The notes: generated from the sequence alone by a model not told the origin. A stretch of DNA of 64,000 nucleotides from Candidatus Eiseniibacteriota bacterium (GCA_031364845.1 JANLWX010000007.1:64001-128000), one strand, 5' to 3'; shown: positions 23,060 through 59,615, counted from the first letter of the stretch. Numbers and translations: made by a program.

Positions 23060-23956
23060 GTGGTCGAAGTGACGAGAGACGCGCGGCGCGTGGGGATCGG
23101 ACTCCGCGACGGCTGGCAGCGCCTGGTGCCTGCGGACTGGCTGCGTGGCTGGCAGCCGCAGCGCTTCGAGTTGAACGGAGGCTGGACCGAGGTCGTCGTG
23201 ATGGGCGAAGGCCCGCCGCTGGTGCTGCTGCCGCCGCTGCCGGGCTACAAGGAGTCGTGGCTCGCGTGTGCGGGGTTGCTCGCGCGCGAGTTCCGCGTGA
23301 TCACCTTCGATCTGCGCGCGCGATTCGCGGGCCCGCCGCGCTGGGACGCGCTGCTCGACGACGTCACGAGCATTCTCTCCGTGCACGCTCCGGGGCGTGT
23401 GCGCCTCGCCGGTCATTCGCTGGGCGGCGCGCTCGCGCAGCGCTGGACGCTCGCGCATCCGGAACGTGTGGCCGCACTCGTTCTTTCCAGCACGTTCGCG
23501 CGCGTCACGAATCCGCGCGGCAACTGGTGGGCGCGCTTCGTCGAGCAGCCGGTGGTGCTCGCGGGCCAGCGCCTGCTGCCGGATGCGCTCGCGCGACCGC
23601 TCGCGCGCCACGGCGCCGCGCGCGGCGCGTGGGTCTACGACGCGCGCTGCGACGATGCCGTGCTCGACTTCGTGCGCTTCTGCATGCGCGACCTCGCGGT
23701 CGCCGACGCGCGCCAGACCGTGGCGCTCGCGATCGCGCACGACACGCGCGCCACGCTCGCGTCCTTGGCACCTCCAGTGCGCATCGTGGTCGGTGAACTC
23801 GAGAGCGTGTTCTACCTCGAGGCACTCGCCGAGTTGCGCGCGCTGTTGCCGCGTGCCGACTTCGTCGAGTCGCCGGGCGTGAGCCACCTGCATCTGCTCT
23901 CGAGCCCGCAGTGGCTCGCGGAGCGGATCGCCGAGTGGATGCGGGGGAGGACGTGA
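23060..23956 (+). CDS. Alpha/beta hydrolase
   Basis: GEGPPLVLL, GHSLGG, AHPERVAALVL and a C-terminal His; start uncertain (GTG 23060 or 23069). Confidence 0.8.
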   Translation: MVEVTRDARRVGIGLRDGWQRLVPADWLRGWQPQRFELNGGWTEVVVMGEGPPLVLLPPLPGYKESWLACAGLLAREFRVITFDLRARFAGPPRWDALLDDVTSILSVHAPGRVRLAGHSLGGALAQRWTLAHPERVAALVLSSTFARVTNPRGNWWARFVEQPVVLAGQRLLPDALARPLARHGAARGAWVYDARCDDAVLDFVRFCMRDLAVADARQTVALAIAHDTRATLASLAPPVRIVVGELESVFYLEALAELRALLPRADFVESPGVSHLHLLSSPQWLAERIAEWMRGRT

Positions 23957-32786: not shown

Positions 32787-32863
<77 letters not shown>

Positions 32864-38494: not shown

Positions 38495-39490
38495 ATGAAC
38501 GCTCTTCACGCCCTCCGTCCACTCGCCCTGGTGCTGTCGCTCGCGCCATTCATGAGCACCCCGCTGCCCGCACACGAGGTCGACGCCTCGGGTACCGCTC
38601 AGGGGCTCGTCATCCACGACGCGGCGAGCACGTTGCGTGAATATTGTGCGCCGGACTCCGAAGGTCGGCTGTGGATCACGCTTCCCGGCGGGTGGCGCTT
38701 CGAGTTGATCACGTCGACCGACGATCCCGGCATCATCAACCCGGGAGACGGCGCCTTCCATCCGTTCGACGCCGCGGAAGTCACGGCGGCCCTCGCCCAG
38801 CTGAGCTTCCCGGTTGCGGGGATCTCGGCCGAAGTCTTCCTGCTGCCCTATCCGCGCCGCGCGCAGATCGAATCGGCAGCCGGCCCGCGGCTGATCCTAA
38901 TGTCGCCCGGTGTGCGTCCGCTCACGCGCGAACACCAGCATGCCGAGTTCGTTCACGAGCTGGGCCATGTCGTCCATCACGCGCTGATGCCGGACGGTGA
39001 CGGTCGCTGGGACACGTATCGCAGACTCCGCGAGATCGACGACGCACGCTACTCGCCGACGGCCCCGCACGCGGATCGTCCGCACGAGATTTTCGCCGAG
39101 GACTTCCGCGCGCTGTTCGGCGGACCGCGGGCGACCTATTCCGGCACGATCGAGAACTCGAGCCTCGCTTCGCCCGAGGATGTTCCCGGACTCTCGTCGT
39201 TCATGCTCGGGCTCGCCGGCGTCACGGCTCCGCTTCCGATTCTTGCTTCGCCGAACCCCACGCGCGGCGCGCTGCGGTTCACGCTGGCCGGCGCGAGCGA
39301 GGTGCCGCTCGACCTGTTCGATGCCGGCGGACGACGGATCGCGAGCCTCGCGCCCCGTGCGACCGCGGGCGCAATCGAATGGAATTTCGACGGCTTCGAC
39401 GCGGCGGGACGCCCGGTGGCACCGGGCGTGCTGTTCGCGCGGCCGCGCGGCGCGCGTCACAGCGCTGCGCGCATCATCGTCGTCCCCTGA
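38495..39490 (+). CDS. Secreted zincin-like metalloprotein with short FlgD/T9SS-type C-terminal domain
   Basis: Signal peptide, VHELGH...EIFAEDF, C-terminal PNPTRG...LFDAGGRRI...GVLF. Confidence 0.7.
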   Translation: MNALHALRPLALVLSLAPFMSTPLPAHEVDASGTAQGLVIHDAASTLREYCAPDSEGRLWITLPGGWRFELITSTDDPGIINPGDGAFHPFDAAEVTAALAQLSFPVAGISAEVFLLPYPRRAQIESAAGPRLILMSPGVRPLTREHQHAEFVHELGHVVHHALMPDGDGRWDTYRRLREIDDARYSPTAPHADRPHEIFAEDFRALFGGPRATYSGTIENSSLASPEDVPGLSSFMLGLAGVTAPLPILASPNPTRGALRFTLAGASEVPLDLFDAGGRRIASLAPRATAGAIEWNFDGFDAAGRPVAPGVLFARPRGARHSAARIIVVP

Positions 39491-41531: not shown

Positions 41532-42875
41532 TCACCGGCGGGCGATTCCGTACTTGCGCATCTTGCGGTGCAGATTCGTGCGATCGATGCCGAGGCCGGT
41601 CGCGGCTTGCGTGACATTCCCGTTCGCGCTTTCGAGCGCTTTGCGAATCGCCTCCGCCTCGCGTCGTTCGATCTCGCCACGCAGACCGACTCCATCGCCG
41701 TGTTCCGCGCTGCGCTCGAGCCACGAGGTGAGATCCTCGGCGCGCACTTCAGTTCCTTCCACCAGGATCGCGGCGCGTTCCATGAGATTTCTCAACTCAC
41801 GTACGTTCCCCGGCCAGTGGTATTCCTCGAGCAACGTCTGCGCATCCGGCGTCAGGCGTTTCGGCGCATGTCCTTCCGTCGTGCAGAACTGGTTCAGAAA
41901 GTGTTCCGCGATCGGCGCGATGTCCGCTGGACGTTCGCGCAGCGGTGGCACGTGAAGGGGAAGCACGTTGAGCCGGTAGAACAGATCCTGCCGGAAGCTG
42001 CCGTCTTCGACCGCCGTGGCGAGGTCCTTGTTGGTCGCGGCGACGATGCGGACATCGAAGGTCTGCGTGCGGGTCGCGCCGACCTTCTCGACTTCGCCGG
42101 TTTCGATCACGCGCAGCAGTTTGGCCTGCGCGTCGAGTGCCAGGTCGCCGATCTCGTCGAGGAACAGCGTGCCGTGGTCCGCGAGTTCGAGGCGTCCCTT
42201 CTTGCTCTGAAGCGCGCCGGTGAACGCTCCGCGCTCGTAGCCGAACAGTTCGCTCTCGACCAGATCCTTGGGGATCGCGGCACAGTTGATCTTGACGAAC
42301 GGTCCCGACGCGCGCCGGGAGAGCACGTGGATCGCCTGCGCGACGAGTTCCTTGCCCGATCCGTTCTCGCCCGTGATCAGCACGCGTCCCTGCGAAGGAG
42401 CGACCCGTCGCACGCTCTCGATGAGTGCCGCGATCGCGGAACTCGATCCGAGAATCCCGAGGTCGTCGCCGGGTTTGGAATTCGCGGCGCGCCGCAGGCC
42501 GGTGATCTGCGCGGCCTGCATCACGACATCCAGGAGACGCTCGCGATCCGGTGGCTTCTCGATGAAATCGAACGCGCCGCGCTGGCCGGCGCGCATCGCG
42601 TTGGCGATGGTCGCCTCGCCCGAGACCACGATCACGCCGACGTCGGGCGCGTTCTCTCGGATGCGTTCGAGCGCGTCGAGACCATGCATGCCGGGCATCG
42701 CGAGATCGAGCAGCACCACGTCGAAGCGGCGCTCCTCGAGCGTCGCGATCGCGCGTTCGCCGGTCTCCGCCTCGGCGACCGTGTGCCCCGCGTGTTCCAG
42801 CACCGCGCGCAGCGCGTCGCGGATGGCGGGATCATCGTCGACTACCAGCACGTCCAGCCGCCTGCTCATCGTCAT
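41532..42875 (-). CDS. sigma54-dependent response regulator (NtrX/NtrC family)
   Basis: REC domain (VVDDD, LLDL), [28 protein letters not shown], Fis-type HTH. Confidence 0.95.
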
Positions 42876-42906
42876 CGTCCCTCGTTTCCTTTCAGAATTC
42901 CGCGCA

Positions 42907-44412
42907 TCATGCGCCTGCGGCCCGTGGCAGCGCGACCCGGGCCTCGGCGCCGCCGCCTTCGCGGTCGTCGAGCGTGATCGTACCGCCGTGCTGCTGGACG
43001 ATGTCGCGCACCAGCGACAGGCCGAGTCCGCTGCCGCGCCTTTTCGTGCTCACGTACGGCTCGAACAGCCGGCCGCGCACTGCGGGCGGGAGACCGGCAC
43101 CCCGATCGAGCACCACGAGCGTGACCTGTTCCGCGTTCGCGCGGACTTCGATTTCGATCGCGGCGTGCGGCGGGCTGGCTTCGCGCGCATTGAGGACGAG
43201 GTTGTGGATCGCGCGCGTCAACAGCAACCGGTCGCCAAGGATCGGAGCAGCTTCGCACCGATACTCGACCGGGTCGAGCATGGCGGTGTTCGCCTGGAGG
43301 ATCGCGCGCACGATTTCGTCCAGATCGAACGACTCGAACCGCGGTTCCGGCAGCCGCGCGTACTGTGAGAACTGCTCAGCGAGCCGATGCAGATGGTCGA
43401 CTTCGCGCAGCACGCTCGCGAGACTGCGGCGGAACGATTCACGCTCGGCTTCCGGCACCGCCGCGATCTGCGCCTCGACCAGCTGCAGCGAGAGCTGCAT
43501 CGGCGTCAAGATATTGCGGAACTCATGCGCGAGTTTTCGCGCGACATCGCGCCACGCGGCTTCGCGTTCGGCCTGCTGGACCGCTTCACGCGCGGATTCG
43601 AGTCCCGCGGCCATTTGGTTGAACGACGACCCGAGCGATCGCAGCTCGAGCGCCCCGGCGGGCGCGACCCGTGCCGCGAGATCCCCCGCGGCGACGCGCT
43701 CCAACGCTTCCGACAGCGTCTGAATCGGCCGCGCAGTGTCGCGCGCGATCGTGTGGGAGAGGAAGACCGCACCGGCGACCAGCATCACGACGATCGCCGC
43801 GACCATGATCATGTAGACGCGGCGTTGCAGATCCACATACACACCGAGCTGGCGATAGTAACCGGTGCCGGTGCCGAGGTTTTCGATCTGCTCGAAGAAT
43901 TCCGGGCTCACGCGCACACCGGCGACGACCGCATCACCGCCCGCCGCCTGGCTCACGCCCGCGATCGCGCCGGCCGGGAAACGCAGTACTTCGCCGGACT
44001 CGAGCGCGGGCGAAATCGCATTCGCGAGATCGAGCGGTGTGGCCTGGATCACGCCGCGCGGAGTCACCTGTGCGACCCGCTGCCATTGCCCGCTCGCATC
44101 GCGCCGGTACACCTGAAGGAAATCGACGCCCGCCGCCGCCAGCTGCGCGCTCCACGATTGCTCGGTCGCCAAGGACAGCGATCCCGTCCAGCGCGACGCC
44201 CACACGTCGGACTGGGTGAGCAGCGTGGATTCGAAGCGCGCGAGTGAACCCTTGCCGATCTCGAGTCCGGCTTCGAGCGCGCGGGCCACACCCGGTCGAT
44301 ACCAGCGATCGATGGAGCGTCCGAGCTGATCGAGTGTGAACCAGGTGAAGACCGCGGTGGGAAGCAGCGCCAGCGCGAGGAGCGCAACCAGGAGCCGGTT
44401 TCGGAGCGTCAT
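42907..44412 (-). CDS. NtrY-like HAMP sensor histidine kinase
   Basis: Two TM helices, HAMP, AWRDVARKLAHEFRN, NLVLNA, DRGAG, GSGLGL. Confidence 0.92.
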   Translation of the reverse strand: MTLRNRLLVALLALALLPTAVFTWFTLDQLGRSIDRWYRPGVARALEAGLEIGKGSLARFESTLLTQSDVWASRWTGSLSLATEQSWSAQLAAAGVDFLQVYRRDASGQWQRVAQVTPRGVIQATPLDLANAISPALESGEVLRFPAGAIAGVSQAAGGDAVVAGVRVSPEFFEQIENLGTGTGYYRQLGVYVDLQRRVYMIMVAAIVVMLVAGAVFLSHTIARDTARPIQTLSEALERVAAGDLAARVAPAGALELRSLGSSFNQMAAGLESAREAVQQAEREAAWRDVARKLAHEFRNILTPMQLSLQLVEAQIAAVPEAERESFRRSLASVLREVDHLHRLAEQFSQYARLPEPRFESFDLDEIVRAILQANTAMLDPVEYRCEAAPILGDRLLLTRAIHNLVLNAREASPPHAAIEIEVRANAEQVTLVVLDRGAGLPPAVRGRLFEPYVSTKRRGSGLGLSLVRDIVQQHGGTITLDDREGGGAEARVALPRAAGA

Positions 44413-47269: not shown

Positions 47270-47569
47270 ATGTTCAAAGTTCGCAACAGGCTCCTGATCG
47301 CCGTGATTCTGTTCGCGATCGCTTTCTGCGCCTGTCTGAACGCGGAAGCCGGAGCGCGCACGCTATTGCGCCCCGGATCGAACTCCTCGTACGGACAACT
47401 GAAGCCAGGCGCGATGGCGAACGCAGGCGAGCCCGATGTGGGAGACAACGGGAAGAACGGTCCGCCGAGCACCGGCAACGGTTCCGGCGCAGCCATCATT
47501 CCCACTCCGACGGGTTATCGCTGGATCATCGCGGCATGGGCAGCACGGTATCTCGGAGTGGGCTGGTAG
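47270..47569 (+). CDS. Small (99 aa) secreted protein / candidate signalling propeptide
   Basis: RBS AGAGGGGAG; Sec-type signal peptide MFKVRNRLLIAVILFAIAFCACLNAEA; Gly/Asn/Pro-rich middle (AGEPDVGDNGKNGPP); Trp-rich C-terminal helix. Confidence 0.7.
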   Translation: MFKVRNRLLIAVILFAIAFCACLNAEAGARTLLRPGSNSSYGQLKPGAMANAGEPDVGDNGKNGPPSTGNGSGAAIIPTPTGYRWIIAAWAARYLGVGW

Positions 47570-47663
47570 TCGTCAGTACCCACTCGTCACCAGCAATGTG
47601 ATCGTGCCCTGGAAAGGACAGCCAGGGTGCTCCGATGCGGTCGTGATCACCGAGGGTTGAAAA

Positions 47664-50600
47664 GTGCAGCGAGCGATCCCCCCCGATCTGGCTCAGGCCC
47701 GCCGCTCCGAAAGGAGCGGGGCGCCGCAGCATGAAGCGATCGGCGATCTTCATCTCGCGGCCGACAATTTCGTCGGTGCCGCCGAGGAATATGTCGCGGC
47801 TCTTCGCGAAGTCGGCGCGTCGGAGCCCGCGGAGCGGTGCCGCCTGCTCGAGCGGCTTGCCGAAGCCAATCGCCGCCGCGGAGACTTCGATGGCGCGATG
47901 ACGGCGCTGATCGAAGCACGCGCGACCGCGCGACTGCTGATGGATTCGCGGTGGAACGCGCGGATTGCCGCCCGCTTCTCGCATGTGCTCGCCGACCGCG
48001 GGCTCCATCGCCGCAGCCGCCGGTACGCGCACTACTGCTATCGCGTGCTGCGCGACACCGACGAACACCGCATCGTCGGACAGGTCAGTGTGACGCTCGG
48101 TCTGTGCAGTGCGCGACTCGGTCAGAGCCAGGAGGCGATCGACTGGCTTCAGAGCGCGGCTGCCACGTTCCGCCGCATCGACGATGTCGAAGGCCTGGTG
48201 ACCGCACTCAACAATCTCGGTCTCGTCTACAAGAACCTGCGCGAATGGCGTGAAGCGACCCGCTTCATCGAACAGGCGCTGCGCCTCGACGAGCGCGCCG
48301 GCCTCTACGCGCGGATGCGGGGCCACAATCAGAATCTCGGGTTGATCCGCTATCGTCTCGGCCAGTGGGATCTCGCTGAAGAAAACTTCCGCCAGTCGCT
48401 CAAGATCTCGCGCGACATCGGACATGCGCAGGGCGAGTCGGTTGCTTTGCTGGCGCTCGGCATGCTCTGCCGCCGACGCCGCCAGTTCGAGCGCGCCGAT
48501 GAGCACTTCCAGCGCGCGCTCACGCTCTCGACGCGCGCCGGAGCGCGCCGCGAACAGATCCTGTCGCGCGAGTTCCTGGGAGAACTGGCACTCGACCGCG
48601 GCGATGCGATCTCCGCCGAGCGCCACATCGCGCCGGCGCTCGAGGAGGCGATCGCGCTCGCGCCGCAGGGTGATCTCGTCGCGGAACTGGAGACGCGCCT
48701 CGGCCTCACCTTCACCGCGCTCGGTCGCATCGACGAGGCGCAGTCGCATCTGCTGCGCGGCATGATGGTCGCGGAGCATATCGGTGATCGCGTGGAGCAT
48801 GCGGTCGCCGAGCGTGGGCTCGCGCGCCTCGATGCGATCCGCGGGAATCCCGCCGCGCTCGAAGCCAAGATCCGCTCGGCGGCTCAGGTGTTCGAAGGAC
48901 TCGGCGAGACCTATGAACTCGCCGTGACCCTGTCGATGTGGGGTGAGGCACTGCTCGACCTGCCGAAGAGCACCCGGTTGCGGGTGCCGCTCGAGGCAGT
49001 CGGTGATGCCGCCAAGCGTTCCGCCGCGCTGTTCCGCGAGCTCGGCGTGATCGCACTCGCGGCCGAGGCGCTCATCACGCTCGCGCGGCTCGAAAGCGAA
49101 CGCGATCACTATGATCAGGCGCTGTCGCTGCTCGAGAAGGCGGAGCAATGGCTCGCCGATGCCGGATCCGCCGAGACCGAGGAGCGCGCGAAGGCGCTGC
49201 GCCGCGAACTCGAGCAGCAGTACGTCGCGGTTTCGCTTTCGACCTGCAACGAATTCCGGGCACTCGAGGAAGCCAACCGTCTGTTCCGCGAGACCAGCGA
49301 CATGGACGGCCTGCTCGCGGGCACCGTGCGCCTCGCGGTCGAGAGCGCGGGCGGCGATCGCGGATTTGTGGCGTTCAGCCACGGCGGTGGACGGCTCGAA
49401 GTCGTCGCGCAGTACGGGCTCGGCCGCGATCGCGCGCGCCGCATCCTGCGCGTGATCGAAGGTGTCGGCGGCAGCCGCATCGCCGAGAACGGACCGGTGT
49501 TCTCGAGCCGGGTCACTGCCGATCCTCGCTTCGGCGCGGCGCTGACCGACGCGCTCGAGAACGTCGGATCGCTCGTGTGCGTGCCGCTCAATTTCCCGTC
49601 GCAGTCGGTCGGCATGGTCTACGTCGATCGCCTCAACGACAATCTGCTCGGCCCGTTCCGCCAGCGCGAATTGAATCTGCTCGCGGTACTCGCGAACAGC
49701 GCCGCGGTCGCGATCGTCGAAGCCCAGCGCTCGCTGCTGCTCGCCGAGAACAAGCAACTGCGCGACAAGCTCAAGCCGATGCCCGGCGTCGAGCGCGTCG
49801 TGACCGATTCACGCGAGATGACCTCGATCCTCAAGCTGATCGCGAAGGTCGGCGACAGCTCGGCGACCATTCTGTTCATGGGCGAGACCGGCACCGGCAA
49901 GGGCCTGCTGGCTCAGGTCGTGCACGAGGTCTCCAACCGGCGCGACAAGGCGTTCGTGATGGTGAACTGCGCCGCACTGCCCGAGCAGCTGCTCGAGAGC
50001 GAGCTGTTCGGCTACGTCCAGGGTGCGTTCACGGGTGCCGTCCGCGACAAGGTCGGCCTGTTCGAGGAAGCGAGCGGCGGGACGATCTTCCTCGACGAGA
50101 TCGAGAAGGTTCCGGAGACGGTGCAGGCCAAGCTGCTCCACGTGCTCGACAGCGGCGAGATCCGCCCGGTCGGAGCGACGCGCAGCCGCAAGGTGGATGC
50201 GCGCGTGATCTGCGCCACCGGCTGCGATCTGCGAGAGCGGATCAAGGACGGCCGGTTCCTCGAGGATCTCTACTACCGCCTGAACGACATCTCGATTCGC
50301 GTGCCCTCGTTGCGCGAGCGCCGCGAAGACGTGCCCGTGCTGGCGCAGCATTTCCTCGGCTACTACTCGAAGCAGATGGAGAAGCGGATCACGGGTTTCG
50401 CGCCGGGCGTGATGAAGGCGTTCCTGGACTACGAATGGCGCGGCAACGTGCGCGAACTCGAAAAGACCGTGAAGCGTCTCGTGGTGCTCGCGGACGACGG
50501 CGACACGCTCGACACCACGCTTCTGCCTTCCGACATGCTGGAGACGATGCCTGCGGCCGGCGAGCGGGCACCGGGTATGAGCCTGCGCTCCAACGTTTCG

Positions 50601-50747
50601 CAGCTCGAGAAGAAGATGATCGCCCAGGCACTCGAGCGCCATCATTGGAACAAGGCGCGTACCGCGCGGGAGCTGGGCCTCAGCTACCCGACGCTGCTCA
50701 CCAAGATTCGGAGCTTCAAGATCGAGCGTCGCCCGGCCCACTCGTGA
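47664..50747 (+). CDS. TPR-GAF-AAA+-HTH sigma54 enhancer-binding protein
   Basis: ~520 aa of TPR repeats (ALNNLGLVY, NLGLIRYRLGQWDLAEENFRQSL), GAF domain, GETGTGK, GAFTGA, FLDEI, WRGNVREL, Fis HTH; no TM segment or REC domain. Confidence 0.93.
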   Translation: MQRAIPPDLAQARRSERSGAPQHEAIGDLHLAADNFVGAAEEYVAALREVGASEPAERCRLLERLAEANRRRGDFDGAMTALIEARATARLLMDSRWNARIAARFSHVLADRGLHRRSRRYAHYCYRVLRDTDEHRIVGQVSVTLGLCSARLGQSQEAIDWLQSAAATFRRIDDVEGLVTALNNLGLVYKNLREWREATRFIEQALRLDERAGLYARMRGHNQNLGLIRYRLGQWDLAEENFRQSLKISRDIGHAQGESVALLALGMLCRRRRQFERADEHFQRALTLSTRAGARREQILSREFLGELALDRGDAISAERHIAPALEEAIALAPQGDLVAELETRLGLTFTALGRIDEAQSHLLRGMMVAEHIGDRVEHAVAERGLARLDAIRGNPAALEAKIRSAAQVFEGLGETYELAVTLSMWGEALLDLPKSTRLRVPLEAVGDAAKRSAALFRELGVIALAAEALITLARLESERDHYDQALSLLEKAEQWLADAGSAETEERAKALRRELEQQYVAVSLSTCNEFRALEEANRLFRETSDMDGLLAGTVRLAVESAGGDRGFVAFSHGGGRLEVVAQYGLGRDRARRILRVIEGVGGSRIAENGPVFSSRVTADPRFGAALTDALENVGSLVCVPLNFPSQSVGMVYVDRLNDNLLGPFRQRELNLLAVLANSAAVAIVEAQRSLLLAENKQLRDKLKPMPGVERVVTDSREMTSILKLIAKVGDSSATILFMGETGTGKGLLAQVVHEVSNRRDKAFVMVNCAALPEQLLESELFGYVQGAFTGAVRDKVGLFEEASGGTIFLDEIEKVPETVQAKLLHVLDSGEIRPVGATRSRKVDARVICATGCDLRERIKDGRFLEDLYYRLNDISIRVPSLRERREDVPVLAQHFLGYYSKQMEKRITGFAPGVMKAFLDYEWRGNVRELEKTVKRLVVLADDGDTLDTTLLPSDMLETMPAAGERAPGMSLRSNVSQLEKKMIAQALERHHWNKARTARELGLSYPTLLTKIRSFKIERRPAHS

Positions 50748-51084
50748 GCGAGTGACGTCTTCGAGTTCTGCCTTAGAGGGGTCCATTCGTTCCTCGACCC
50801 CCGGCGATTGAAGACCCTTAAAGACGGCTGACCTCGCGAACCCGAGACCGCCCGTCTCTCCATCCTCGAAACACACAAGTTCTTTCCCTCACCACCATAA
50901 AAACAATTGCTACCCAAGTCCCTTATTCGGCGCGGACTTAGATTCTGCCCTCGAAATCACGCAGAAGTCTTGTGTCACCCGAAACACCCGGGGCAAACTC
51001 AGGACTAAGAATGGCGAAGCGAATCGAACTCGATTCGATTGTGCGACATGGTGTTACGGGATTGTCTTGTCGCCGTCAGATCGC

Positions 51085-51100
51085 TGGCATGCAGGGTGCT
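51085..51100 (+). promoter_or_regulatory. sigma54 (-24/-12) promoter
   Basis: TGGCATGCAGGGTGCT (GG-N10-GC), preceded by an AT-richer region with inverted repeats (AAGTCC-N13-GGACTT at 50916-50940). Confidence 0.7.
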
Positions 51101-51109
51101 TTAGTAATC

Positions 51110-51536
51110 AGGCGGAGGGGGGGGACCTCCAAACCAAGTTCAGCGAGCGATTGCTGGACGAACAAGACATCTGGGCTAGCCGGTTCCGTAGGAGTCGGTC
51201 AAGGGTTACGAGCCCCAGTCTCACAAGGACGAATGCACCGCCCTCTACGACCGGCTAGCTTGGAGTAACACTCCGAACATCGAACACCACCCACGACTTT
51301 TCATATTCCCGGGGTGCTCCTGATACGACAGGCGGCGGGTCCGCTGACGACGAGGGCTCCTGATCCCGCTGCAAGTTGAGCGCCCCGGGGTATTCAAGGA
51401 CACCGGTTTCTAGCAACTTCGGCCAGCATTGGGGGATGCCTCGGTCGACGCGGCTTAGCTCTTCGAAGCCGGTGTCCTCGTTTCGAGAAAGTGTGGCGCG
51501 GCTCACACACACGTGAGACCGCGCCGCACTGTTTTT
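51110..51536 (+). ncRNA. Candidate ~430-nt structured non-coding RNA, family unrecognised
   Basis: Bounded by a sigma54 promoter and an intrinsic terminator. Consecutive long helices 51175-84/51250-59, 51308-19/51378-89 and 51397-410/51465-78 enclose sub-hairpins; GNRA-capped hairpin at 51138-59; no convincing ORF. Confidence 0.6.
51490..51536 (+). terminator. Rho-independent terminator
   Basis: AGTGTGGCGCGGCTCAC...GTGAGACCGCGCCGCACT followed by GTTTTT. Confidence 0.8.
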
Positions 51537-51668
51537 GCCGTCGTCGGTGTGGCGAAGACTGTGGATCCGCGATTCTCCGCCCGTCCCCGCCCCGTAACTT
51601 GTTGGCGCATAAGGATGGCCCCGTCCACTCGGAGCCCATCTACAATCTGCGCCTCACAAGGAAAGCGA

Positions 51669-51683
51669 TGGCACGGGCATTGC
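51669..51683 (+). promoter_or_regulatory. sigma54 (-24/-12) promoter of the lipoprotein operon
   Basis: TGGCACG-GGCA-TTGC, an exact consensus match 64 nt upstream of ATG 51748; IHF-like TAACTTGTTG at 51595-51604. Confidence 0.8.
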
Positions 51684-51747
51684 CGTTGCTGTTCCGTTCG
51701 CGACTCGTAACCCCAAGGATCGCCTCGCTTACGGAAAGGACAGGCCC

Positions 51748-52572
51748 ATGAGATCCGCCCTGGTCATGACGTCGATGCTCGCCCTGGCAGGCTTGGTCGC
51801 CGGGTGCAACGACTCCACCGCACCCCGAGATCTCATCGCACCCGCGGCTCCGCGCGGCCTGGTGACGGTGACCGGGGACCACGTCGTGTACGTGAGCTGG
51901 CTCGCCAACACCGAAGGCGATGTGGCCGGCTACCGGATCTACGAGGCGCCGTGCCCTGACGGCGACGGGTGCCCCTACGATCCGGTCGGCGTCACCTCGA
52001 GCACCCGATTCACGATCGAGGGGCTCACCAACGGCGAGACGCGCTTCTTCGCCGTCGCCGCATTCGATCATGCGGGCAACGAGAGCGCCCTATCCAAGGA
52101 TCTCGCCTTCGACACGCCGCGACCTGAAGGATTCGACCAGTTCCTCAGTGACGCGACCGACCAGCCCGCGACGAGCGGCTGGGACTTCTCGGCCCGGGCG
52201 GTGCGCGCGTTCGATGATCCGGCGGTCGACGTTTACTATGTACGCTCGAGCGGGGTGGATCGGATCGTCGCGCCGTTCGTGGACACCGACATCCAGGACG
52301 CGGGTTACGCGACCACACTCGATGCCATCGACTTTGCGCCGACCGGCGGCTGGTCGCCGACCGGCGCCACGGAACTCGTGGTCGGGCACTGTTACATCGT
52401 GCGGACGTTCGACGATCACTACGCCAAGCTGAGGGTCACGGGCCTCGCGGCGGGCCGCGCGCAGTTCGATTGGGCCTATCAAATCGATCCGGGCAACCGC
52501 GAGCTCAAGGCGCGGCCCGCCAATCGCGAAGGGGGCCGGGTCCGCCGGCACACCGTGGCGCTGGTGCCATGA
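51748..52572 (+). CDS. Lipoprotein with FN3-like domain and beta-rich C-terminal domain
   Basis: Lipobox LVAGC; PAAPRGL..VTGD..V.VSW..N.E.DVAGYRIY...VAAFD.AGNES (FN3-like). Confidence 0.8.
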   Translation: MRSALVMTSMLALAGLVAGCNDSTAPRDLIAPAAPRGLVTVTGDHVVYVSWLANTEGDVAGYRIYEAPCPDGDGCPYDPVGVTSSTRFTIEGLTNGETRFFAVAAFDHAGNESALSKDLAFDTPRPEGFDQFLSDATDQPATSGWDFSARAVRAFDDPAVDVYYVRSSGVDRIVAPFVDTDIQDAGYATTLDAIDFAPTGGWSPTGATELVVGHCYIVRTFDDHYAKLRVTGLAAGRAQFDWAYQIDPGNRELKARPANREGGRVRRHTVALVP

Positions 52573-52586
52573 GGGGGTAAGAACAC

Positions 52587-53096
52587 ATGGGGTGGCAGCG
52601 GGCGATAGGTTTGTTCGTGGGGCTCGCAGTGCTGTTGTCAGGCTGCGTGCAAGCCTATCGGTCGGTGCGGCCGGAACCCCGGTTGTACGCGGCAGCGCGT
52701 CCGGCACCCGGTTACTACTGCTATGATTGTCACGGCTATCGGTTTCTGGACCCGTACTACGACTGGTGCCCCCCGAACGGCTATCGGTTCCAGTGGTCCC
52801 AGTCCCCGCAGCTCATGCGGGTGTACCGGGAACGCTATGTGGCTTTGAAGCAACGCGATCGCAACCTGGGAAAGTTCCGCTACTCGGACCGCTACCGCTC
52901 CACGCGGCGCTATCGCGAGTCGCGGCCATACGAGGACGACGCGGAAGGGAAGCGCAGGCCCGGACAGGGCATCAAAGATTCTCGACGGGAGCAGGACGCC
53001 CCACGTCGGGGTAAGAGCGAACGAGCTCCGCGCGATTCGGACGATTCCCGGCCGAAGAAGTCGCGAGGCCAGAGGCCGCAAGGGACCGAATCATGA
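52587..53096 (+). CDS. Lipoprotein with CYDCH motif and charged disordered tail
   Basis: Lipobox LLSGC; YYCYDCHGYRFLDPYYDWC; ATGA overlap with the next gene. Confidence 0.7.
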   Translation: MGWQRAIGLFVGLAVLLSGCVQAYRSVRPEPRLYAAARPAPGYYCYDCHGYRFLDPYYDWCPPNGYRFQWSQSPQLMRVYRERYVALKQRDRNLGKFRYSDRYRSTRRYRESRPYEDDAEGKRRPGQGIKDSRREQDAPRRGKSERAPRDSDDSRPKKSRGQRPQGTES

Positions 53097-54490
53097 CTCG
53101 ACGCCACGCCGTTCTCACCGCATTCGCGTTGCTTCTGCTCCCGGTGCTTCCGGGTGTCGTGGCCGCGCGCGGATTTTCGGTCGATGTCTGGACGAACCGC
53201 GGCAACGACGGAGTCTATAAGCCCGGCGAAGCCATCGACATCAAAGTGCGCCCGTCCGAAGACGCCTACGTCCTTCTCTACGAGATCGATGCCGAGGGCT
53301 ACGTTCACAAGCTCTACCCATACGACCGCTCGAGCGGCATGCTCGAAGGGCGCCGCACCTACCGCCTCGGCGAGGATCAGGACGAGGCGGAACTCGTCGC
53401 ACAGGGCCCGGTCGGACAGGGCTTCATCGTGGCGATCGCCTCGCTCGACCCATTCGAGCCGCTGCCCTGGTATCTGCGTTCGGTCGATCGGCAGGCCGAG
53501 GAACTCGGCTACGACGGCGCACCCGAAGACGAACGCGAAGGCATCACGGCCGAAGGACGCATCGTCGGAGATCCGTTCGTCGTCATGGAGCGCATCCGCC
53601 GGCGCGTCGTCGCGGATCCCAACGACTCCGAGGGCTTCACGACCTCCTACACGAGCTACTACCTCCATCACGAAGTCCGCTATCCGCGCTACCTGTGCAA
53701 CGATTGCCACCGTCCCGACCGCTACACGTTCTGGGACGGATACGATCCTTACTACGCCACGTGCAGCGTGTTCGACTTCCGCGTGAATTATCACTGGAAC
53801 TGGGGACCGTCGTACTGGTTCGGCAGCGTCCCCTACTTCGTCTACGTCTATCGCGACGACTGTCCGCCGCAGTTCCGCAATCCCGGCCGTCGTTCGTGGT
53901 CGTCATGGGATGGCTGGGGCCGCTGGCAGAATCTGTGGGGCGGAGGTCTCCGGCGCTTCAAGACGCCGCCGCCGACGGGCTACGTGCCTCCGACCAAGTA
54001 CGACGGCGAGTTCCGCCGTCCGGTGTCGCGCGCCCTTCCCCCGGGCTTCATCGCCTCGACACCCAAGGAGCGACTCGGACGGCGCATCGGAGTGCCCACG
54101 GGCCGCCAAACCGGCGATTTCGGCGATCGCGATTCGAAGGATCGTGGAGATCTCGGTGGCCGGCTGCGGCGCGACCAGCCGCTGAAGCCTCGTGGCGATG
54201 GCGAAGACGTCCGCGATCGCGGGTCGGTCCGCCGTGGCGCCGAACGTCCGGTGCCTGCACGCGAAGCGCCGCGTCCGGATCTGCCGGGCGGGCGTCGCGA
54301 CCGCGACGAATCACCGGGACCGGATCGGATCGAGCGGCGTCAGTCGCCGCCGCCGCCGCCCGCGCCGAAGAGCGAACCCGAAGTTCAGCGCGCGCCGCGC
54401 AACGACCCGCCGCCCCGGACACCGGAGCCTCAGCGTTCTCCGCGCCCGCAGACGGAGCGCGAAGACAACGGATTCCGCGGACGCCGTTGA
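53093..54490 (+). CDS. Secreted DUF4384-like domain protein with CNDCH motif and Pro/Arg-rich tail
   Basis: Signal peptide; VDVWTNRG..GVY.PGE.I.I.V...DAYV.LY.ID.EG...LYP; YLCNDCH...DPYYATC. Confidence 0.78.
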   Translation: MTRRHAVLTAFALLLLPVLPGVVAARGFSVDVWTNRGNDGVYKPGEAIDIKVRPSEDAYVLLYEIDAEGYVHKLYPYDRSSGMLEGRRTYRLGEDQDEAELVAQGPVGQGFIVAIASLDPFEPLPWYLRSVDRQAEELGYDGAPEDEREGITAEGRIVGDPFVVMERIRRRVVADPNDSEGFTTSYTSYYLHHEVRYPRYLCNDCHRPDRYTFWDGYDPYYATCSVFDFRVNYHWNWGPSYWFGSVPYFVYVYRDDCPPQFRNPGRRSWSSWDGWGRWQNLWGGGLRRFKTPPPTGYVPPTKYDGEFRRPVSRALPPGFIASTPKERLGRRIGVPTGRQTGDFGDRDSKDRGDLGGRLRRDQPLKPRGDGEDVRDRGSVRRGAERPVPAREAPRPDLPGGRRDRDESPGPDRIERRQSPPPPPAPKSEPEVQRAPRNDPPPRTPEPQRSPRPQTEREDNGFRGRR

Positions 54491-54635
54491 TTCGGGAACC
54501 TATCGCACTGGGTGGCGTCCCGCCCTCGGGATCGGCGAGAATGCGCCCGTTCGAATGGACGACGACCTTCGCATTCGCGGCGTGTGAGACACCAGTCTCA
54601 CGCGCCGCGAATGCCACCTATCGGAGCTCCCCTTG

Positions 54636-55583
54636 ATGCGACGCGTTCACCGCGGCACCCGTTTCCTGCGCCGTCTTGTCTTTGCCTTCGCGCTCGCGAC
54701 CGGAGCGGGTCTCGGCACCTGGGCGCCGAATGCAACGGCGGCTCCGTCGGGGTTCGCGTTCCTCGAGATTCCGGCGGGCGCGCGTTCAGCGGCACTCGGT
54801 GGGGCGCTCGCCACGATGACGTCCGGCGCCGAGGCGATGTTCGGCAACGTCGCCTCGATCGATCCGACCCGTGGAATCCAGGTGAGCGGCGGACACAGCG
54901 AGTTGATCCAGTCACTGCGCCACGACTACTTCTCCGTGTCCGGGCACGCCTGGGGCGGCGGGCTCGGTGCCTCGATGCGCGCGCTCTATTCGGAGCCGAT
55001 CGACGAGCGCGACGAAGTCGGCAATCTGATCGGTACCTTCGGGGCGCACGATCTCGAATTTGCACTCGGCTATGGCGGACCCCTGATGCCGGACGTGCGT
55101 TTCGGCGTCTCCGCCCAAATGATCCGCGAGCGCATCGCCAACGAGGCCGTGACGACTTACGGCATCGGCCTCGGTGCCCTGTGGGAGCCCGCGGGCCCGC
55201 TCGACTTCGGCCTCACGGTTCAGAACCTCGGCCCGGCCGCGCACTACAAGATCAACGGCATCGAAGGTGAAGCGGTCGGACTCCCTGCGGCCGTGCAGGG
55301 TGGCGCGTCCTATTCCATCGCGGCGGGTGCGCGCATGTCGGCGCGCGCGGCACTCGAAGGACGCTTCACTCGCGGGCGCGGCGGCATCGGGATTCTCGGT
55401 GCTGAGATCTCCGACGTCTCGGGAGCCGCGTTGCGCTTCGGCGTCCGCGCGAACGACGACGCTTCGACCTTCAGCGCCGGCGCCGGCTACGCGCTCACCG
55501 GGCTACAGTTCGACTACGCGTGGGTTCCGTTCAAGCTCGATCTCGGCGACACGCACCGGATTTCGTTCACCGCGAAGTTCTGA
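54636..55583 (+). CDS. PorV/PorQ-family outer-membrane beta-barrel
   Basis: FLEIPAGARSAALGGA, DYAWVPF.DLGDTHRISF, C-terminal Phe. Confidence 0.82.
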   Translation: MRRVHRGTRFLRRLVFAFALATGAGLGTWAPNATAAPSGFAFLEIPAGARSAALGGALATMTSGAEAMFGNVASIDPTRGIQVSGGHSELIQSLRHDYFSVSGHAWGGGLGASMRALYSEPIDERDEVGNLIGTFGAHDLEFALGYGGPLMPDVRFGVSAQMIRERIANEAVTTYGIGLGALWEPAGPLDFGLTVQNLGPAAHYKINGIEGEAVGLPAAVQGGASYSIAAGARMSARAALEGRFTRGRGGIGILGAEISDVSGAALRFGVRANDDASTFSAGAGYALTGLQFDYAWVPFKLDLGDTHRISFTAKF

Positions 55584-56679: not shown

Positions 56680-58188
56680 ATGAGCAATCATCCGTTCACG
56701 TCGCAGAAGCCTCGTGGATATTTCACGGGGGCGGCCCTGCTGGTCGCCGTCGGACTCGTCATCGGCCTGGGACTGTCGGCGGGTCTCGATTTCCAGAAGA
56801 CCTCCACCGCTCAGAAGACGACAATGGTTCCGGCGGCGAGCACGATGGCCGCGGTGCCCGAAAGCCCGTTCGTGTCGGTCGTCGAGCAGGCGCTTCCCGC
56901 CGTCGTGTTCATCGATGTTCGCAAGAACGCCGCGAGCAGCCGGACCGGCGATCCGCAGGCCGATCTGTTCCGCCGCTTCTTCGGCGAAGAGGCCCCGCGC
57001 CGCCAGCAGCAGGCTCCGCCCAGCTCGGGCTCCGGCTTCATCGTCGATACGGACGGCCACATCCTCACCAACAATCACGTGGTGCGTGACGCCAGCGACA
57101 TCACGGTGACGCTCAACGACCGCCGTTCGTTCAAGGCGAAGGTCGTCGGCGCCGACCCCGAGACCGACGTCGCGGTCATCAAGATCGAAGGCGAAAACCT
57201 GCCAGTGCTGCGTCTCGGCGACTCGGGCCAGGTGCGCATCGGCGACTGGGCGATCGCGATCGGCAACCCGCTCGGCATGCTGCGCGGCTCCGTCACGGTC
57301 GGCATCATCAGTGCGCAGGGTCGCTCGGATCTCAACATCTACGGCGGGACGCCGCAGTACCAGGACTTCATCCAGACCGACGCCTCGATCAACTTCGGCA
57401 ACTCGGGCGGACCGCTGTGCAATATCCGCGGCGAGGCGATCGGCATCAACACCGCGATCAACCCGAGCGGCCAGGGCATCGGCTTCGCGATTCCGATCAA
57501 CCTCGCGAAGCACGTTTCGGATCAACTGATCGCCCACGGCACGGTGAAGCGCGCGATGCTGGGTGTGTTCCTCGCGGAACTGACACCCGAAATCGCAGAA
57601 GGCTTCGGCCTTGGACGCACCGACCAGGGCGTGATCATCCGCGACGTTCAGGATGGTTCGCCCGCCGCGCGCGCGGGGCTCAAGCGCAACGATGTGGTGG
57701 TCGAATTCGACGGGCAGCCGGTCACCGAGTTGCAGAAGTTCCGCATTCGCGTTGCCGATACCCCGGTGGGCAGGAGTGTCCCGGTCACCGTGCTGCGCGA
57801 CGGCAAGCGTGAGAAGTTGAACGTGACGCTCACGAGCAAGGAAGATGACCCGGTCGCCTCCGGCGATCCCGCAGCGCGGACCCCGGAGACCGTCTCGGAG
57901 CTGGTGGGCGGACTCAAGGTGCGCACGTTGAGCGAGGAAGAGCGCGCCGCGTCCAAGCTGACCGGCGGTGTGGCGGTCGCCGATGTCGCCGAGGGCAGTG
58001 CGGCCAGCGACGCCGGAATCCAGGCCGGTGACATCATCCAGGAAGTCGGCGGAAAGGACGTGAAGTCCGCCGCGGACTTCGCCAGACTGATCCGTGAATC
58101 GAAGAGCCAGAGGAAGCATGTCGTTCTGCTGGTCAGCAGCCCGAACGAAGCGCCGCGATTCGTGGCGCTCCGACTCGAAACACGTTGA
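56680..58188 (+). CDS. degP: Do/DegP/HtrA serine endoprotease with two PDZ domains
   Basis: SGSGFI, LTNNHVV, TDVAVIK, IQTDASINFGNSGGPL, two PDZ domains. Confidence 0.93.
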   Translation: MSNHPFTSQKPRGYFTGAALLVAVGLVIGLGLSAGLDFQKTSTAQKTTMVPAASTMAAVPESPFVSVVEQALPAVVFIDVRKNAASSRTGDPQADLFRRFFGEEAPRRQQQAPPSSGSGFIVDTDGHILTNNHVVRDASDITVTLNDRRSFKAKVVGADPETDVAVIKIEGENLPVLRLGDSGQVRIGDWAIAIGNPLGMLRGSVTVGIISAQGRSDLNIYGGTPQYQDFIQTDASINFGNSGGPLCNIRGEAIGINTAINPSGQGIGFAIPINLAKHVSDQLIAHGTVKRAMLGVFLAELTPEIAEGFGLGRTDQGVIIRDVQDGSPAARAGLKRNDVVVEFDGQPVTELQKFRIRVADTPVGRSVPVTVLRDGKREKLNVTLTSKEDDPVASGDPAARTPETVSELVGGLKVRTLSEEERAASKLTGGVAVADVAEGSAASDAGIQAGDIIQEVGGKDVKSAADFARLIRESKSQRKHVVLLVSSPNEAPRFVALRLETR

Positions 58189-58197
58189 ACCCGGATT

Positions 58198-58224
58198 TGG
58201 GAGGCGGCCGCAGGCTGCCTCCCA
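58198..58224 (+). terminator. Hairpin after degP (possible terminator)
   Basis: TGGGAGGCGGCC-GCA-GGCTGCCTCCCA; no clear U-tract. Confidence 0.45.
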
Positions 58225-58256
58225 CTCCGAGTCACAGCCGATGCCCGCGGCCAACC

Positions 58257-58332
58257 GGCAGGCTGATGAAGAACCCGAGTGCAGCGAGGAGCGACCGAGC
58301 AACGCAGCAATCGGGTTTTTCATCAGCCTGCC
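58257..58332. repeat. MITE/REP-like element, short copy (76 bp)
   Basis: Terminal IRs GGCAGGCTGATGAAGAACCCGA / TCGGGTTTTTCATCAGCCTGCC; internal GAGCAACGCAGCAATCGGG shared with the copy at 59653. Confidence 0.8.
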
Positions 58333-58397
58333 AAGGCGCGGGCACCGTGCTTAGGGTCTCCGGGTCAGTCCCGGCCGAAAAAAGAGGACGATCGATC

Positions 58398-59615
58398 GTG
58401 CGAAGGACTCGCCGTCTGATGTCGTTTGTGACAACGCTGCTGATCGCGACCTCCGCGTCGTTCGCCGCCGTGCGTGCGGACGGTCCGGTCGCCACACCGG
58501 GCGTGACCACGCTCACCGGCCTGCGTTCGTGGTCGGCTCCTTCGAACACTCGTGTGGTTCTCGCCTTTTCGGCGATGGTGACGCCGGTGGCGCCTGACTC
58601 CGGCAAGAGCCGCGAGTTGGTGGTCGCGTTCCCGGGCGAGACGCTGCCGCGCGCGGCCGACGTTCCCTCGATGCTCGCCGTTCGCGACGGGCTCATCGAC
58701 TCGGTCGTCGTGCAGGATTCGCCGACCGGCGCGCGCGTGCTCATCACCTTCCGCGACACGGTCAAGTTCCGCGTGTTCCCGTTGCCGGGCGAGGCGGACA
58801 AGCAGTACCGCCTGGTCGTGGACGTGGCGCGCCCGGGTGGCGCGGCGGCCGAAGAGAAACGACTCGCAGGCATCGCGAACGCGAAGAAGCGCGACCGCGT
58901 CCGCATCGTCACGGTCGATGCCGGACACGGAGGCGACGACACCGGAGCGCGCGGCCCGCGCAACGTGCTCGAGAAGCGCGTCACGCTCGGCGTCGCCAAG
59001 GCGCTGGTCGAGGAGCTCAACAAGATTCCCGGCATTCGCGCGGTCAACACGCGCGACGGCGATTTCTTCATCCCGCTGCGCGAGCGCTATCGAATCGCCG
59101 AACGCATGAACGCCGATCTGTTCGTGAGCATCCACGCGAACTCCTCACGGCGTCGCGGGAGCGGCAAGGGCACGGAGGTCTACTTTCTGTCGGTGCGCGG
59201 CGCGAGCGATCAGGCCACGCAGGATCTGGCTGACATCGAAAACGCGGCCGATCAGCTGGGCGGCGTGCCTTCGCAGGCCGAGGATGATCTCGTGAACATC
59301 CTCTACGACGTGAAGCGCAGCTCAGCCCAGCAGCAGAGTCAGTTGCTGGCGGAAACGCTGCTCGACCACCTGGGCGAAGACCGCCGCCTCGAGCAGCGCG
59401 GCGTGAAGCAGGCGGGATTCGCCGTGCTCAAGTCGGTCGAATTCCCGTCCGTACTGGTTGAGACCGCGTTCATCAACAACCCGGTCGAAGCCAAACTGCT
59501 CGGAAATCCGGAGTTCCAGAAGCAGCTCGGCCGCCAGCTCGCCGCCGGCGTGAAGATGTACTTCCAACGGGCGGGAGTCACGCTTGGCTCGGAGACCTCG
59601 CAGGCGAGGCCATAG
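58398..59615 (+). CDS. N-acetylmuramoyl-L-alanine amidase with AMIN-like domain (AmiC-like)
   Basis: TRVVL...YRLVVDV, VDAGHGGDD.GA.G...EK, LFVSIHAN, FAVLK..PSVLVETAFINN. Confidence 0.92.
   Translation: MRRTRRLMSFVTTLLIATSASFAAVRADGPVATPGVTTLTGLRSWSAPSNTRVVLAFSAMVTPVAPDSGKSRELVVAFPGETLPRAADVPSMLAVRDGLIDSVVVQDSPTGARVLITFRDTVKFRVFPLPGEADKQYRLVVDVARPGGAAAEEKRLAGIANAKKRDRVRIVTVDAGHGGDDTGARGPRNVLEKRVTLGVAKALVEELNKIPGIRAVNTRDGDFFIPLRERYRIAERMNADLFVSIHANSSRRRGSGKGTEVYFLSVRGASDQATQDLADIENAADQLGGVPSQAEDDLVNILYDVKRSSAQQQSQLLAETLLDHLGEDRRLEQRGVKQAGFAVLKSVEFPSVLVETAFINNPVEAKLLGNPEFQKQLGRQLAAGVKMYFQRAGVTLGSETSQARP

Follow-up and report, generated by a model that had tools for sequence, protein, structure and literature searches.

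In the stretch of DNA analysed here (64,000 nucleotides of Candidatus Eiseniibacteriota bacterium, GCA_031364845.1 JANLWX010000007.1:64001-128000; hereafter the window, with positions counted from its first letter), the stop of a sigma-54 activator gene at 50747 is separated from the next gene at 51748 by 1000 bases without a credible open reading frame (ORF). This gap holds a structured non-coding RNA of ~425 nt on the + strand (~51111-51536), a single-copy element that a DNA search found in one place only in the genome, immediately 3′ of a -24/-12 sigma-54 promoter, P1. It is very probably a real non-coding RNA gene and, with hardly less confidence as judged from its promoter sequence, a sigma-54-dependent one. 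The RNA represents a new family of structured, sigma-54-linked RNAs, without a match in Rfam and with an unusual modular build. Its parts, and the promoter, are the following.

51085-51099, + strand: promoter P1, TGGCAT-N6-TGC, kept in 20/20 relatives' loci.
51114-51130, + strand: invariant 5′ hairpin GGAGG-GGGGGGA-CCUCC at the transcript start, identical in 42/42 long-form RNAs.
51138-51159, + strand: variable hairpin, with a GCGA loop here; double changes in 4/5 tested pairs (helix 2).
51170-51264, + strand: domain 1, with a 14-bp closing helix UCUGGGCUAGCCGG/CCGGCUAGCUUGGA, inner helices and an apical hairpin.
51308-51389, + strand: domain 2, with a closing stem of 12 bp here, CCCGGGGTGCTC/GAGCGCCCCGGG (minimum free energy (MFE) fold).
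51397-51478, + strand: domain 3, with a 12-14-bp closing helix AGGACACCGGTTTC/GAAGCCGGTGTCCT and an invariant apical module.
51490-51536, + strand: terminal hairpin and five U residues, a likely terminator (MFE fold).

P1 (TGGCATGCAGGGTGC) places a -24 GG and a -12 GC at the correct spacing immediately 5′ of the RNA, and the transcript start at ~51111 is inferred from the usual distance to the -12 element. The pattern TGGCAY-N6-TGC occurs four times in the window against 1.04 expected, a count that none of 100 shuffles reached, and two of the four matches flank the RNA (51085 and 51669); rpoN is encoded in the genome. The remaining two matches lie at 23766-23780 and 39417-39431 (+ strand). At the other end, the terminal hairpin (51490-51530) is followed by TTTTT at 51532-51536. 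A simple terminator scanner did not flag this hairpin, the loop of which is above the scanner's size limit, but a sequence-only reading of the same DNA had taken it for an intrinsic terminator, and the hairpin and U5 are in keeping with that. A U-rich stretch also lies 3′ of domain 3 in most relatives, so that there may be two stop points, one after domain 3 and one at the terminal hairpin.

Searches against known families left the RNA unassigned. At gathering scores, Rfam 15 found nothing in the whole window except a tRNA at 32790-32863, and a search of 50700-51800 with E-values up to 10 gave three chance matches to microRNA or long non-coding RNA families, at 11-20 bits against gathering scores of 60-90. 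Five ORFs overlap the RNA region, none with a Pfam match, and among relatives there are indels of 1, 2 and 4 nt within conserved blocks; because these break the frame, and because the ORFs lack a Pfam match, we consider the region not to be coding.

The fold is supported both by its stability and by comparison among relatives. A 441-nt stretch folds with an MFE of -200.6 kcal/mol against -163.9 ± 7.1 for shuffles (z = -5.19; 0/100 shuffles fold as well), and the helices named in the sequence-only reading are all present: GGAGG/CCTCC at 51114-51130, a hairpin at 51138-51159, three large domains, of which the first (51170-51264) is closed by the helix then given as GCTAGCCGGT/ACCGGCTAGC, and the final hairpin. 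The hairpin at 51138-51159, singled out at the time for its GCGA tetraloop, is conserved as a hairpin, but the GCGA loop is specific to this genome. The apical hairpin of domain 1, GGGU(U)ACGAGCCC, is invariant, as is the apical module of domain 3, GGCC-ACAYUGGGGGAUGUC (loop 51426-51439). Domain 2 varies in sequence and in length (91-147 nt in the 20 relatives' loci measured) and was left out of the covariation test, its alignment being too poor.

That test used a MAFFT alignment of 42 distinct full-length RNAs, with 71 pairs in nine helices; two caveats are that alifold took the structure from this very alignment and that the sequences are relatives of each other. Of all cells, 93.7% pair, compared with 35-48% when the 3′ partners are slid by one to three columns, and double changes occur in 30/71 pairs, with 192 such cells against 60 ± 7 in shuffles; none of 500 shuffles reached any of the five measures. 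In domain 1 (helices 3-6, 89-100% paired) 8/31 pairs carry double changes, and in domain 3 (helices 7-9) 18/30 do, while RNAalifold applied to 20 relatives gave compensatory changes in 10/38 pairs of the 5′ half and 16/24 pairs of domain 3. Because neither the 5′ hairpin nor the apical hairpin of domain 1 shows any variation, these two are uninformative for covariation either way. Overall, covariation supports the fold.

The RNA is widely conserved and keeps its genomic setting. DNA matches were found in 26/41 related genomes, including 22/24 within the family, each as one or two pieces of a single locus. The position directly behind the activator gene, already remarked on in the sequence-only reading, recurs in all 20 relatives' loci that were fetched, with the activator C-terminus upstream on the same strand; a gene for a 274-aa lipoprotein (aa, amino acids) follows the RNA in 18/18 loci reaching it, and P2, the sigma-54 promoter at 51669, is kept in 19/19 loci reaching it. 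P1 is likewise present in 20/20 loci of four other families. Scanning public genomes, one per species, for the 5′ hairpin gave at least 119 loci among the matches listed, mostly titled Candidatus Eisenbacteria. A sigma-54 motif starts 28-33 nt upstream of the hairpin in 73/119 of these listed matches, and an activator gene lies upstream in 50/51 promoter-bearing loci with a 700-nt flank (the 51st locus is incomplete), compared with 0/29 loci without the promoter. Across the phylum, the exact hairpin GGAGG-G6/7A-CCUCC is found in 135/206 genomes (a reversed control gave 2 matches), with one copy per genome in all but one, and once in this genome. By family, where f1 is that of the present genome, it occurs in 82/88 (f1), 3/3 (f2), 5/10 (f3), 6/15 (f10) and 38/41 (f18) genomes.

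Behind this shared 5′ hairpin head stand family-specific bodies, from 135 to about 500 nt. The f1 form comprises the variable hairpin, domains 1-3 and the terminal hairpin, and measures 279-503 nt up to where domain 3 ends. The f18 form, of ~135 nt, is a single branched domain whose closing helix and U-run make up a terminator, with compensatory changes in 12/36 pairs; the f10 form (~230 nt) has an apex like that of domain 3; the f3 form (>500 nt) carries a long insert 5′ of domain 1; and the f2 RNA is a further form. A domain 1-type helix recurs in other families' forms, and the apical module of domain 3 is found in f3 and f10 as well. In more distant families the cassette persists and its hairpin differs slightly (GGAGGGGGGACCTCC in f9, GGAGTGGGGACCTCC in f12), and in f17 the RNA is kept in 4/5 genomes (L151-L154) with a remodelled 5′ end, G(Y)GGGGCUUCCGAAAG, that lacks the GGAGG/CCUCC hairpin. 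At one locus each of f15 and f7, the lipoprotein gene is present without the activator or the RNA. The short f18 form, ending as it does in a canonical terminator, shows most clearly that we are dealing with an independent RNA rather than a leader of the next operon, as the sequence-only reading had held on the strength of the operon's own promoter; the gene has the terminator of its own, and its downstream neighbour the separate promoter, expected of an independent small RNA (sRNA) gene.

RNA libraries contain this region. Fifteen metatranscriptome runs had shares of 0.04-0.13 of words, four of them (shares of 0.10-0.13) being placed on 50900-51800; such shares are small and say nothing on habitat or abundance. 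From these four runs, which belong to four studies, came 14 short contigs (127-346 nt), all confined to 51127-51423, without strand or ends. Over the 50900-51800 compared, the contigs leave bare both the 227 nt on the 5′ side of that interval and the 377 nt on its 3′ side, and none bridges to a flanking gene. One contig of 171 nt differs from the window by a single letter, and the contigs' loose ends read as relatives' versions of the same RNA. The parts 51111-51126 and 51424-51536 are without contig cover, and the contigs have no bearing on the ends of the RNA.

The genes and sites around the RNA, on which any account of its function must draw, are as follows.

47270-47569, + strand: gene for a small exported protein of 99 aa, with a signal peptide, a central SGEPD motif and an aromatic C-terminus (genomic context of the RNA, not a component of it).
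47650-47690, + strand: start region of the activator mRNA, with the Shine-Dalgarno sequence GAGGG, a GTG start at 47664 and a candidate pairing site (conservation in 20 genomes).
47664-50747, + strand: sigma-54 activator, a bacterial enhancer-binding protein (bEBP) of 1027 aa with TPR, GAF, AAA+ sigma-54 interaction and Fis-type helix-turn-helix (HTH) domains.
50748-51084, + strand: spacer between the activator gene and P1, with recurring motifs seen by eye in 20 aligned loci.
51669-51683, + strand: promoter P2, TGGCACGGGCATTGC, near-consensus, serving the downstream operon; present in 19/19 relatives' loci reaching it.
51748-55583, + strand: downstream operon encoding the 274-aa fn3-like lipoprotein, a 169-aa protein, a DUF4384 protein and an outer-membrane protein of the PorV/PorQ family (Pfam, NCBIfam).

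The activator matches Pfam Sigma54_activat (3.8e-64), TPR_12, GAF and HTH_8, and its nearest NCBIfam model is NifA, below the cut-off. An ORF equivalent to that of the small exported protein (96-122 aa) lies upstream of the activator in 19/19 relatives. A secreted small protein beside a TPR receptor recalls peptide-sensing regulators. Orthologues of the 274-aa lipoprotein, at 42-46% identity, occur in five further families. Farther 3′ of the operon, at 56680-59615 (+ strand), are an HtrA/DegP-type protease with two PDZ domains and an amidase with an AMIN domain, which fit the envelope theme.

Since P1 is a sigma-54 promoter, an enhancer-binding ATPase is needed, and the TPR-GAF activator encoded directly upstream would most likely be that ATPase; the same activator probably also switches on the envelope-protein operon from P2. 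The neighbouring protein is the candidate driver of P1 on account of their conserved adjacency. Two elements of the spacer deserve mention here. At ~50870-50960, and also in L002-L020, a conserved AAAGTTTCTTTATA-like motif, rich in A and T, precedes a long hairpin with the loop ACTTAG(C), an arrangement that may be the terminator of the activator gene or a protein site. A palindrome-like element, TTGY-N3-GCAA, lies at ~51036-51052, and ~55-75 nt upstream of P1 in most relatives; it may be a binding site for P1. A third element, TGT-N12-ACA, lies within the DNA of the terminal hairpin (51490-51530), and stands 137-192 nt before the end of P2 in 16/19 loci (L001-L019), where shuffles give 0.2 loci; at loci with the short-form RNA it lies beyond the RNA's terminator. 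Given this near-fixed distance to P2 and its position outside the short-form RNA, TGT-N12-ACA is probably an enhancer site for P2, doubling as a terminator stem in this genome. We take it to resemble the NifA site TGT-N10-ACA. Elsewhere in the window, at 41532-44412 (- strand), a second sigma-54 activator of NtrC type (receiver, AAA+ and HTH domains) is encoded beside a HAMP histidine kinase; there are, therefore, other candidates in the genome for driving P1 or P2.

As to what the RNA does, we lean, if only slightly, towards a sigma-54-driven regulator that acts in trans in Candidatus Eisenbacteria and feeds back on its own activator. Under this proposal the G-rich loops of the 5′ hairpin and of domain 3 would pair with a run of seven C residues (C7) at codons 5-7 of the activator mRNA, and the pairing would block ribosome loading and so close a negative feedback loop, as Qrr does on luxO mRNA. 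Repression would be the likelier sign because codons 5-7 presumably fall inside the ribosome footprint. The identity of the driving activator, the occurrence of pairing and the sign of the effect are inferred, not observed, and the parts of the proposal differ in strength: the RNA probably regulates gene expression, and it possibly feeds back on its own activator, the predicted pairing on the activator mRNA being a tentative proposal that we would not yet call likely.

The start of the activator gene has the marks of a constrained RNA site. The C7 tract lies in ATCCCCCCCGAT at 47677-47688 (codons 5-8), in an ORF that begins GTGCAGCGAGCGATCCCCCCCGAT. Across the window and 19 relatives from 19 genera, the first 27 nt of this ORF have a column identity of 0.94 against 0.61 for the next 33 nt, and identity at third codon positions is 0.85-1.0, compared with 0.58 beyond; such conservation at synonymous sites points to a constraint on the RNA in addition to any on the peptide VQRAIPPD. 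The genome has few C7 runs (160 in its 4.6 Mb and 6 occurrences of ATCCCCCCC, both strands being counted), and the start region has no structure of its own (fold z = +1.9). Whole-sequence duplex folding of the RNA against start regions gave long, uninformative duplexes and was replaced by counts of exact complementary stretches between each genome's RNA and its own activator start. By this measure, the 5′ hairpin loop GGGGGGGA has 8 nt complementary to the activator start in 18/18 genomes, and the domain 3 apex UGGGGGAU has 7-10 nt in the same 18/18. In f3 the activators carry a C7 or C6 tract at the same codons (2/2 genomes), and in f2 a C5 tract lies in the leader (2/2). An 11-nt identity of the variable hairpin (CAGCGAGCGAT) with the activator start was also considered, and is regarded as coincidental: the hairpin varies in relatives and the start does not.

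Several observations weigh against the feedback proposal and are taken together here. A C-run at the activator start is found in 0/8 genes examined of f18, f10, f9, f12 and f17, yet the hairpin persists without it, exactly in f18 and f10 and nearly so in f9 and f12; the universal role of the hairpin must therefore differ from feedback, or the target must vary by lineage, and feedback, if real, would be a feature of this order. The RNA loops and the C7 tract are both invariant within the family, so that there is no covariation between RNA and target, and stretches of 7-8 nt are common by chance when G-U pairs are allowed (other sporadic 7-mers were seen). The apical module of domain 3 is conserved over ~25 nt, far beyond the need of a 7-nt pairing, and the 7-8-nt match of the domain 1 apex to the activator's Shine-Dalgarno region, present in 11/18 genomes, is not found in this one. 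Hfq was not found in the genome, which is 97% complete. TGT-N12-ACA precedes P2 and was found upstream of P1 in 0/20 loci, which leaves an activator shared by the two promoters putative, and the metatranscriptome contigs, assembled from relatives and near-relatives, show presence in RNA libraries rather than ends, strand or level.

The RNA is of the same kind as Qrr, CrcZ and GlmY, yet it is unrelated to them in sequence and fold. Qrr sRNAs pair with luxO mRNA and so feed back on their own activator (PMC3262071). The LuxO-Qrr system of Vibrio resembles the present one in having sRNA genes with sigma-54 promoters under a bEBP, and here conserved loops complement the activator start in 18/18 genome pairs of f1, compatibly so in f3, and in none of the eight genes examined of f18, f10, f9, f12 and f17. 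Qrr sRNAs are, however, ~100 nt long, with four stem-loops and a conserved 32-nt core, depend on Hfq and occur in several copies, and the RNA described here differs: it is single-copy and multi-domain, measures 330-500 nt within this family, has no Rfam match to Qrr, stands in a genome where Hfq was not found, and belongs with an activator that has TPR and GAF inputs and no receiver domain. CrcZ of Pseudomonas, controlled by CbrB, is a ~400-nt sigma-54-dependent RNA encoded directly 3′ of its bEBP gene, and sequesters Hfq/Crc by means of repeated A-rich motifs. The CbrB-CrcZ/CrcY system has the gene order and the size class seen here; unlike those RNAs, ours gave no match in Rfam, Hfq was not found, and no repeated motif was seen, although no scan aimed at CA motifs was made (CAAG lacks conservation, and GGA lacks enrichment). 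GlmY of enterobacteria, under GlrR, is a sigma-54- and bEBP-dependent sRNA encoded beside its two-component regulator and acts as a protein decoy; it differs in that there is no sequence or structure match in Rfam, no RapZ-type logic is evident here, and the input domains of the activator are others. A literature search found no described regulatory RNA for Candidatus Eisenbacteria.

Protein binding offers an alternative to feedback pairing, if an unlikely one: a CsrA dimer might grip the GGA of the 5′ hairpin loop together with that of the domain 3 apex, ACAYUGGGGGAUGU, making the RNA a two-site decoy. The apex presumably resembles the high-affinity CsrA ligand consensus RUACARGGAUGU, and both loop motifs are conserved well past the need of base-pairing. 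CsrA is encoded once in this genome (90 bits), where its antagonist FliW was not found, and it occurs in 179/206 genomes of the phylum and in all families with the exact hairpin (f1 82/88, f2 3/3, f3 10/10, f10 15/15, f18 38/41). In f17, CsrA is found in 0/5 genomes, and the RNA that 4/5 of them keep has the remodelled 5′ end without the GGA loop; in f15, CsrA is found in 0/8 genomes, and the RNA is absent at the one locus examined. Yet the f17 correlation is that of a single lineage, f7, f8, f11, f13 and f14 have CsrA without the exact hairpin, and the short form carries the hairpin GGA only. GGA shows no enrichment (9.9 per RNA over 42 RNAs, shuffles giving 9.25), and of four conserved GGA columns only the two in the 5′ hairpin and the domain 3 apex are in loops, as opposed to the many of CsrB/RsmZ-type sponges, from which the RNA also differs in its sigma-54 promoter, theirs being dependent on GacA/UvrY. 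A multi-site CsrA sponge is thereby rejected, and with it the suggestion of the sequence-only reading that recurring CAAG and CAAGGA are CsrA-like sites. The count of six CAAG was correct and is above expectation (1.66; 2/500 shuffles reach six), but it is peculiar to this genome: the 42 related RNAs average 1.4, no column keeps CAAG, and we do not regard CAAG or CAAGGA as a functional repeat.

Somewhat more doubtful still is the idea that the RNA pairs with mRNAs other than that of the activator, its G-rich loops or CCUCC strand acting on C-rich or Shine-Dalgarno sites, for example of envelope proteins, so that the activator match is secondary or coincidental. The 5′ end, where many sRNAs have their seed, is the most conserved part of the RNA and is kept in families without an activator C-tract. 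Two sites complementary to 11-12 nt of the hairpin, GGAGGTCCCCCC and GAGGTCCCCCC, lie 11 nt before the starts of C193 (243 aa) and C225 (737 aa), both exported. These were rejected as targets: homologues lack the sites (25 loci read, from a search of 30 relatives), and, discounting the copy in the RNA gene itself, the 11-mer is no commoner across the phylum than the reversed control. Nor does the leader of the adjacent operon hold a conserved complementary motif beyond an ordinary Shine-Dalgarno sequence, and the failure to find Hfq counts against this explanation as well. The C193 product (G000:C193:202-933, - strand) ends in WGSIKSLYR and is one of a strongly expanded family, matched 27 times here and 34 times in one relative, frequently in tandem within frames of 1000-2000 aa, which leaves the orthology for C193 unclear.

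A role purely in cis is improbable. The transcript, or its transcription, would then have no function in trans and would control the operon by read-through or antitermination, by occluding P2 or by way of an embedded enhancer. The RNA and the operon are on the same strand with only ~130 nt between the RNA and P2, the terminal hairpin overlaps TGT-N12-ACA at its fixed distance from P2, and the U-rich stretch past domain 3 would allow for two stop points. Against this, P2 is conserved at every locus reaching it, the short form has its canonical terminator well before P2, none of the metatranscriptome contigs bridges the RNA and the operon, and ~300 nt of covarying structure exceeds the need of occlusion. 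Least credible of all is that there is no RNA gene here, and that the region encodes a small protein or is a regulatory spacer acting at the DNA level alone, since, for all that this GC-rich genome has several ORFs of 46-98 aa across the region and parts of the spacer look like protein-binding DNA, those ORFs match no family, indels break the frame inside conserved blocks, pairs change in a compensatory way or to G-U wobbles, and the RNA-library contigs are confined to the region.

Candidatus Eisenbacteria has no cultured member, and to its biology this family adds a well-supported, single-copy, sigma-54-linked structured RNA, for which an alignment is ready for an Rfam-type family. It also marks out a conserved cassette of four parts: an exported small protein, a TPR-GAF activator, the RNA and an envelope operon. 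The feedback hypothesis is concrete, and lends itself to testing in a heterologous host, with no need to grow the organism in culture. A bolder reading, which we regard as speculative and rather unlikely as a whole, is that the cassette works as a unit throughout the phylum, with the exported protein or peptide sensed by the TPR-GAF activator, which would switch on both the envelope operon and a modular riboregulator whose G-rich loops clamp C7, the logic of LuxO-Qrr thus being built from different parts. If that were true, at least five architectural forms of the RNA would have in common a new RNA effector module, the universal 5′ hairpin.

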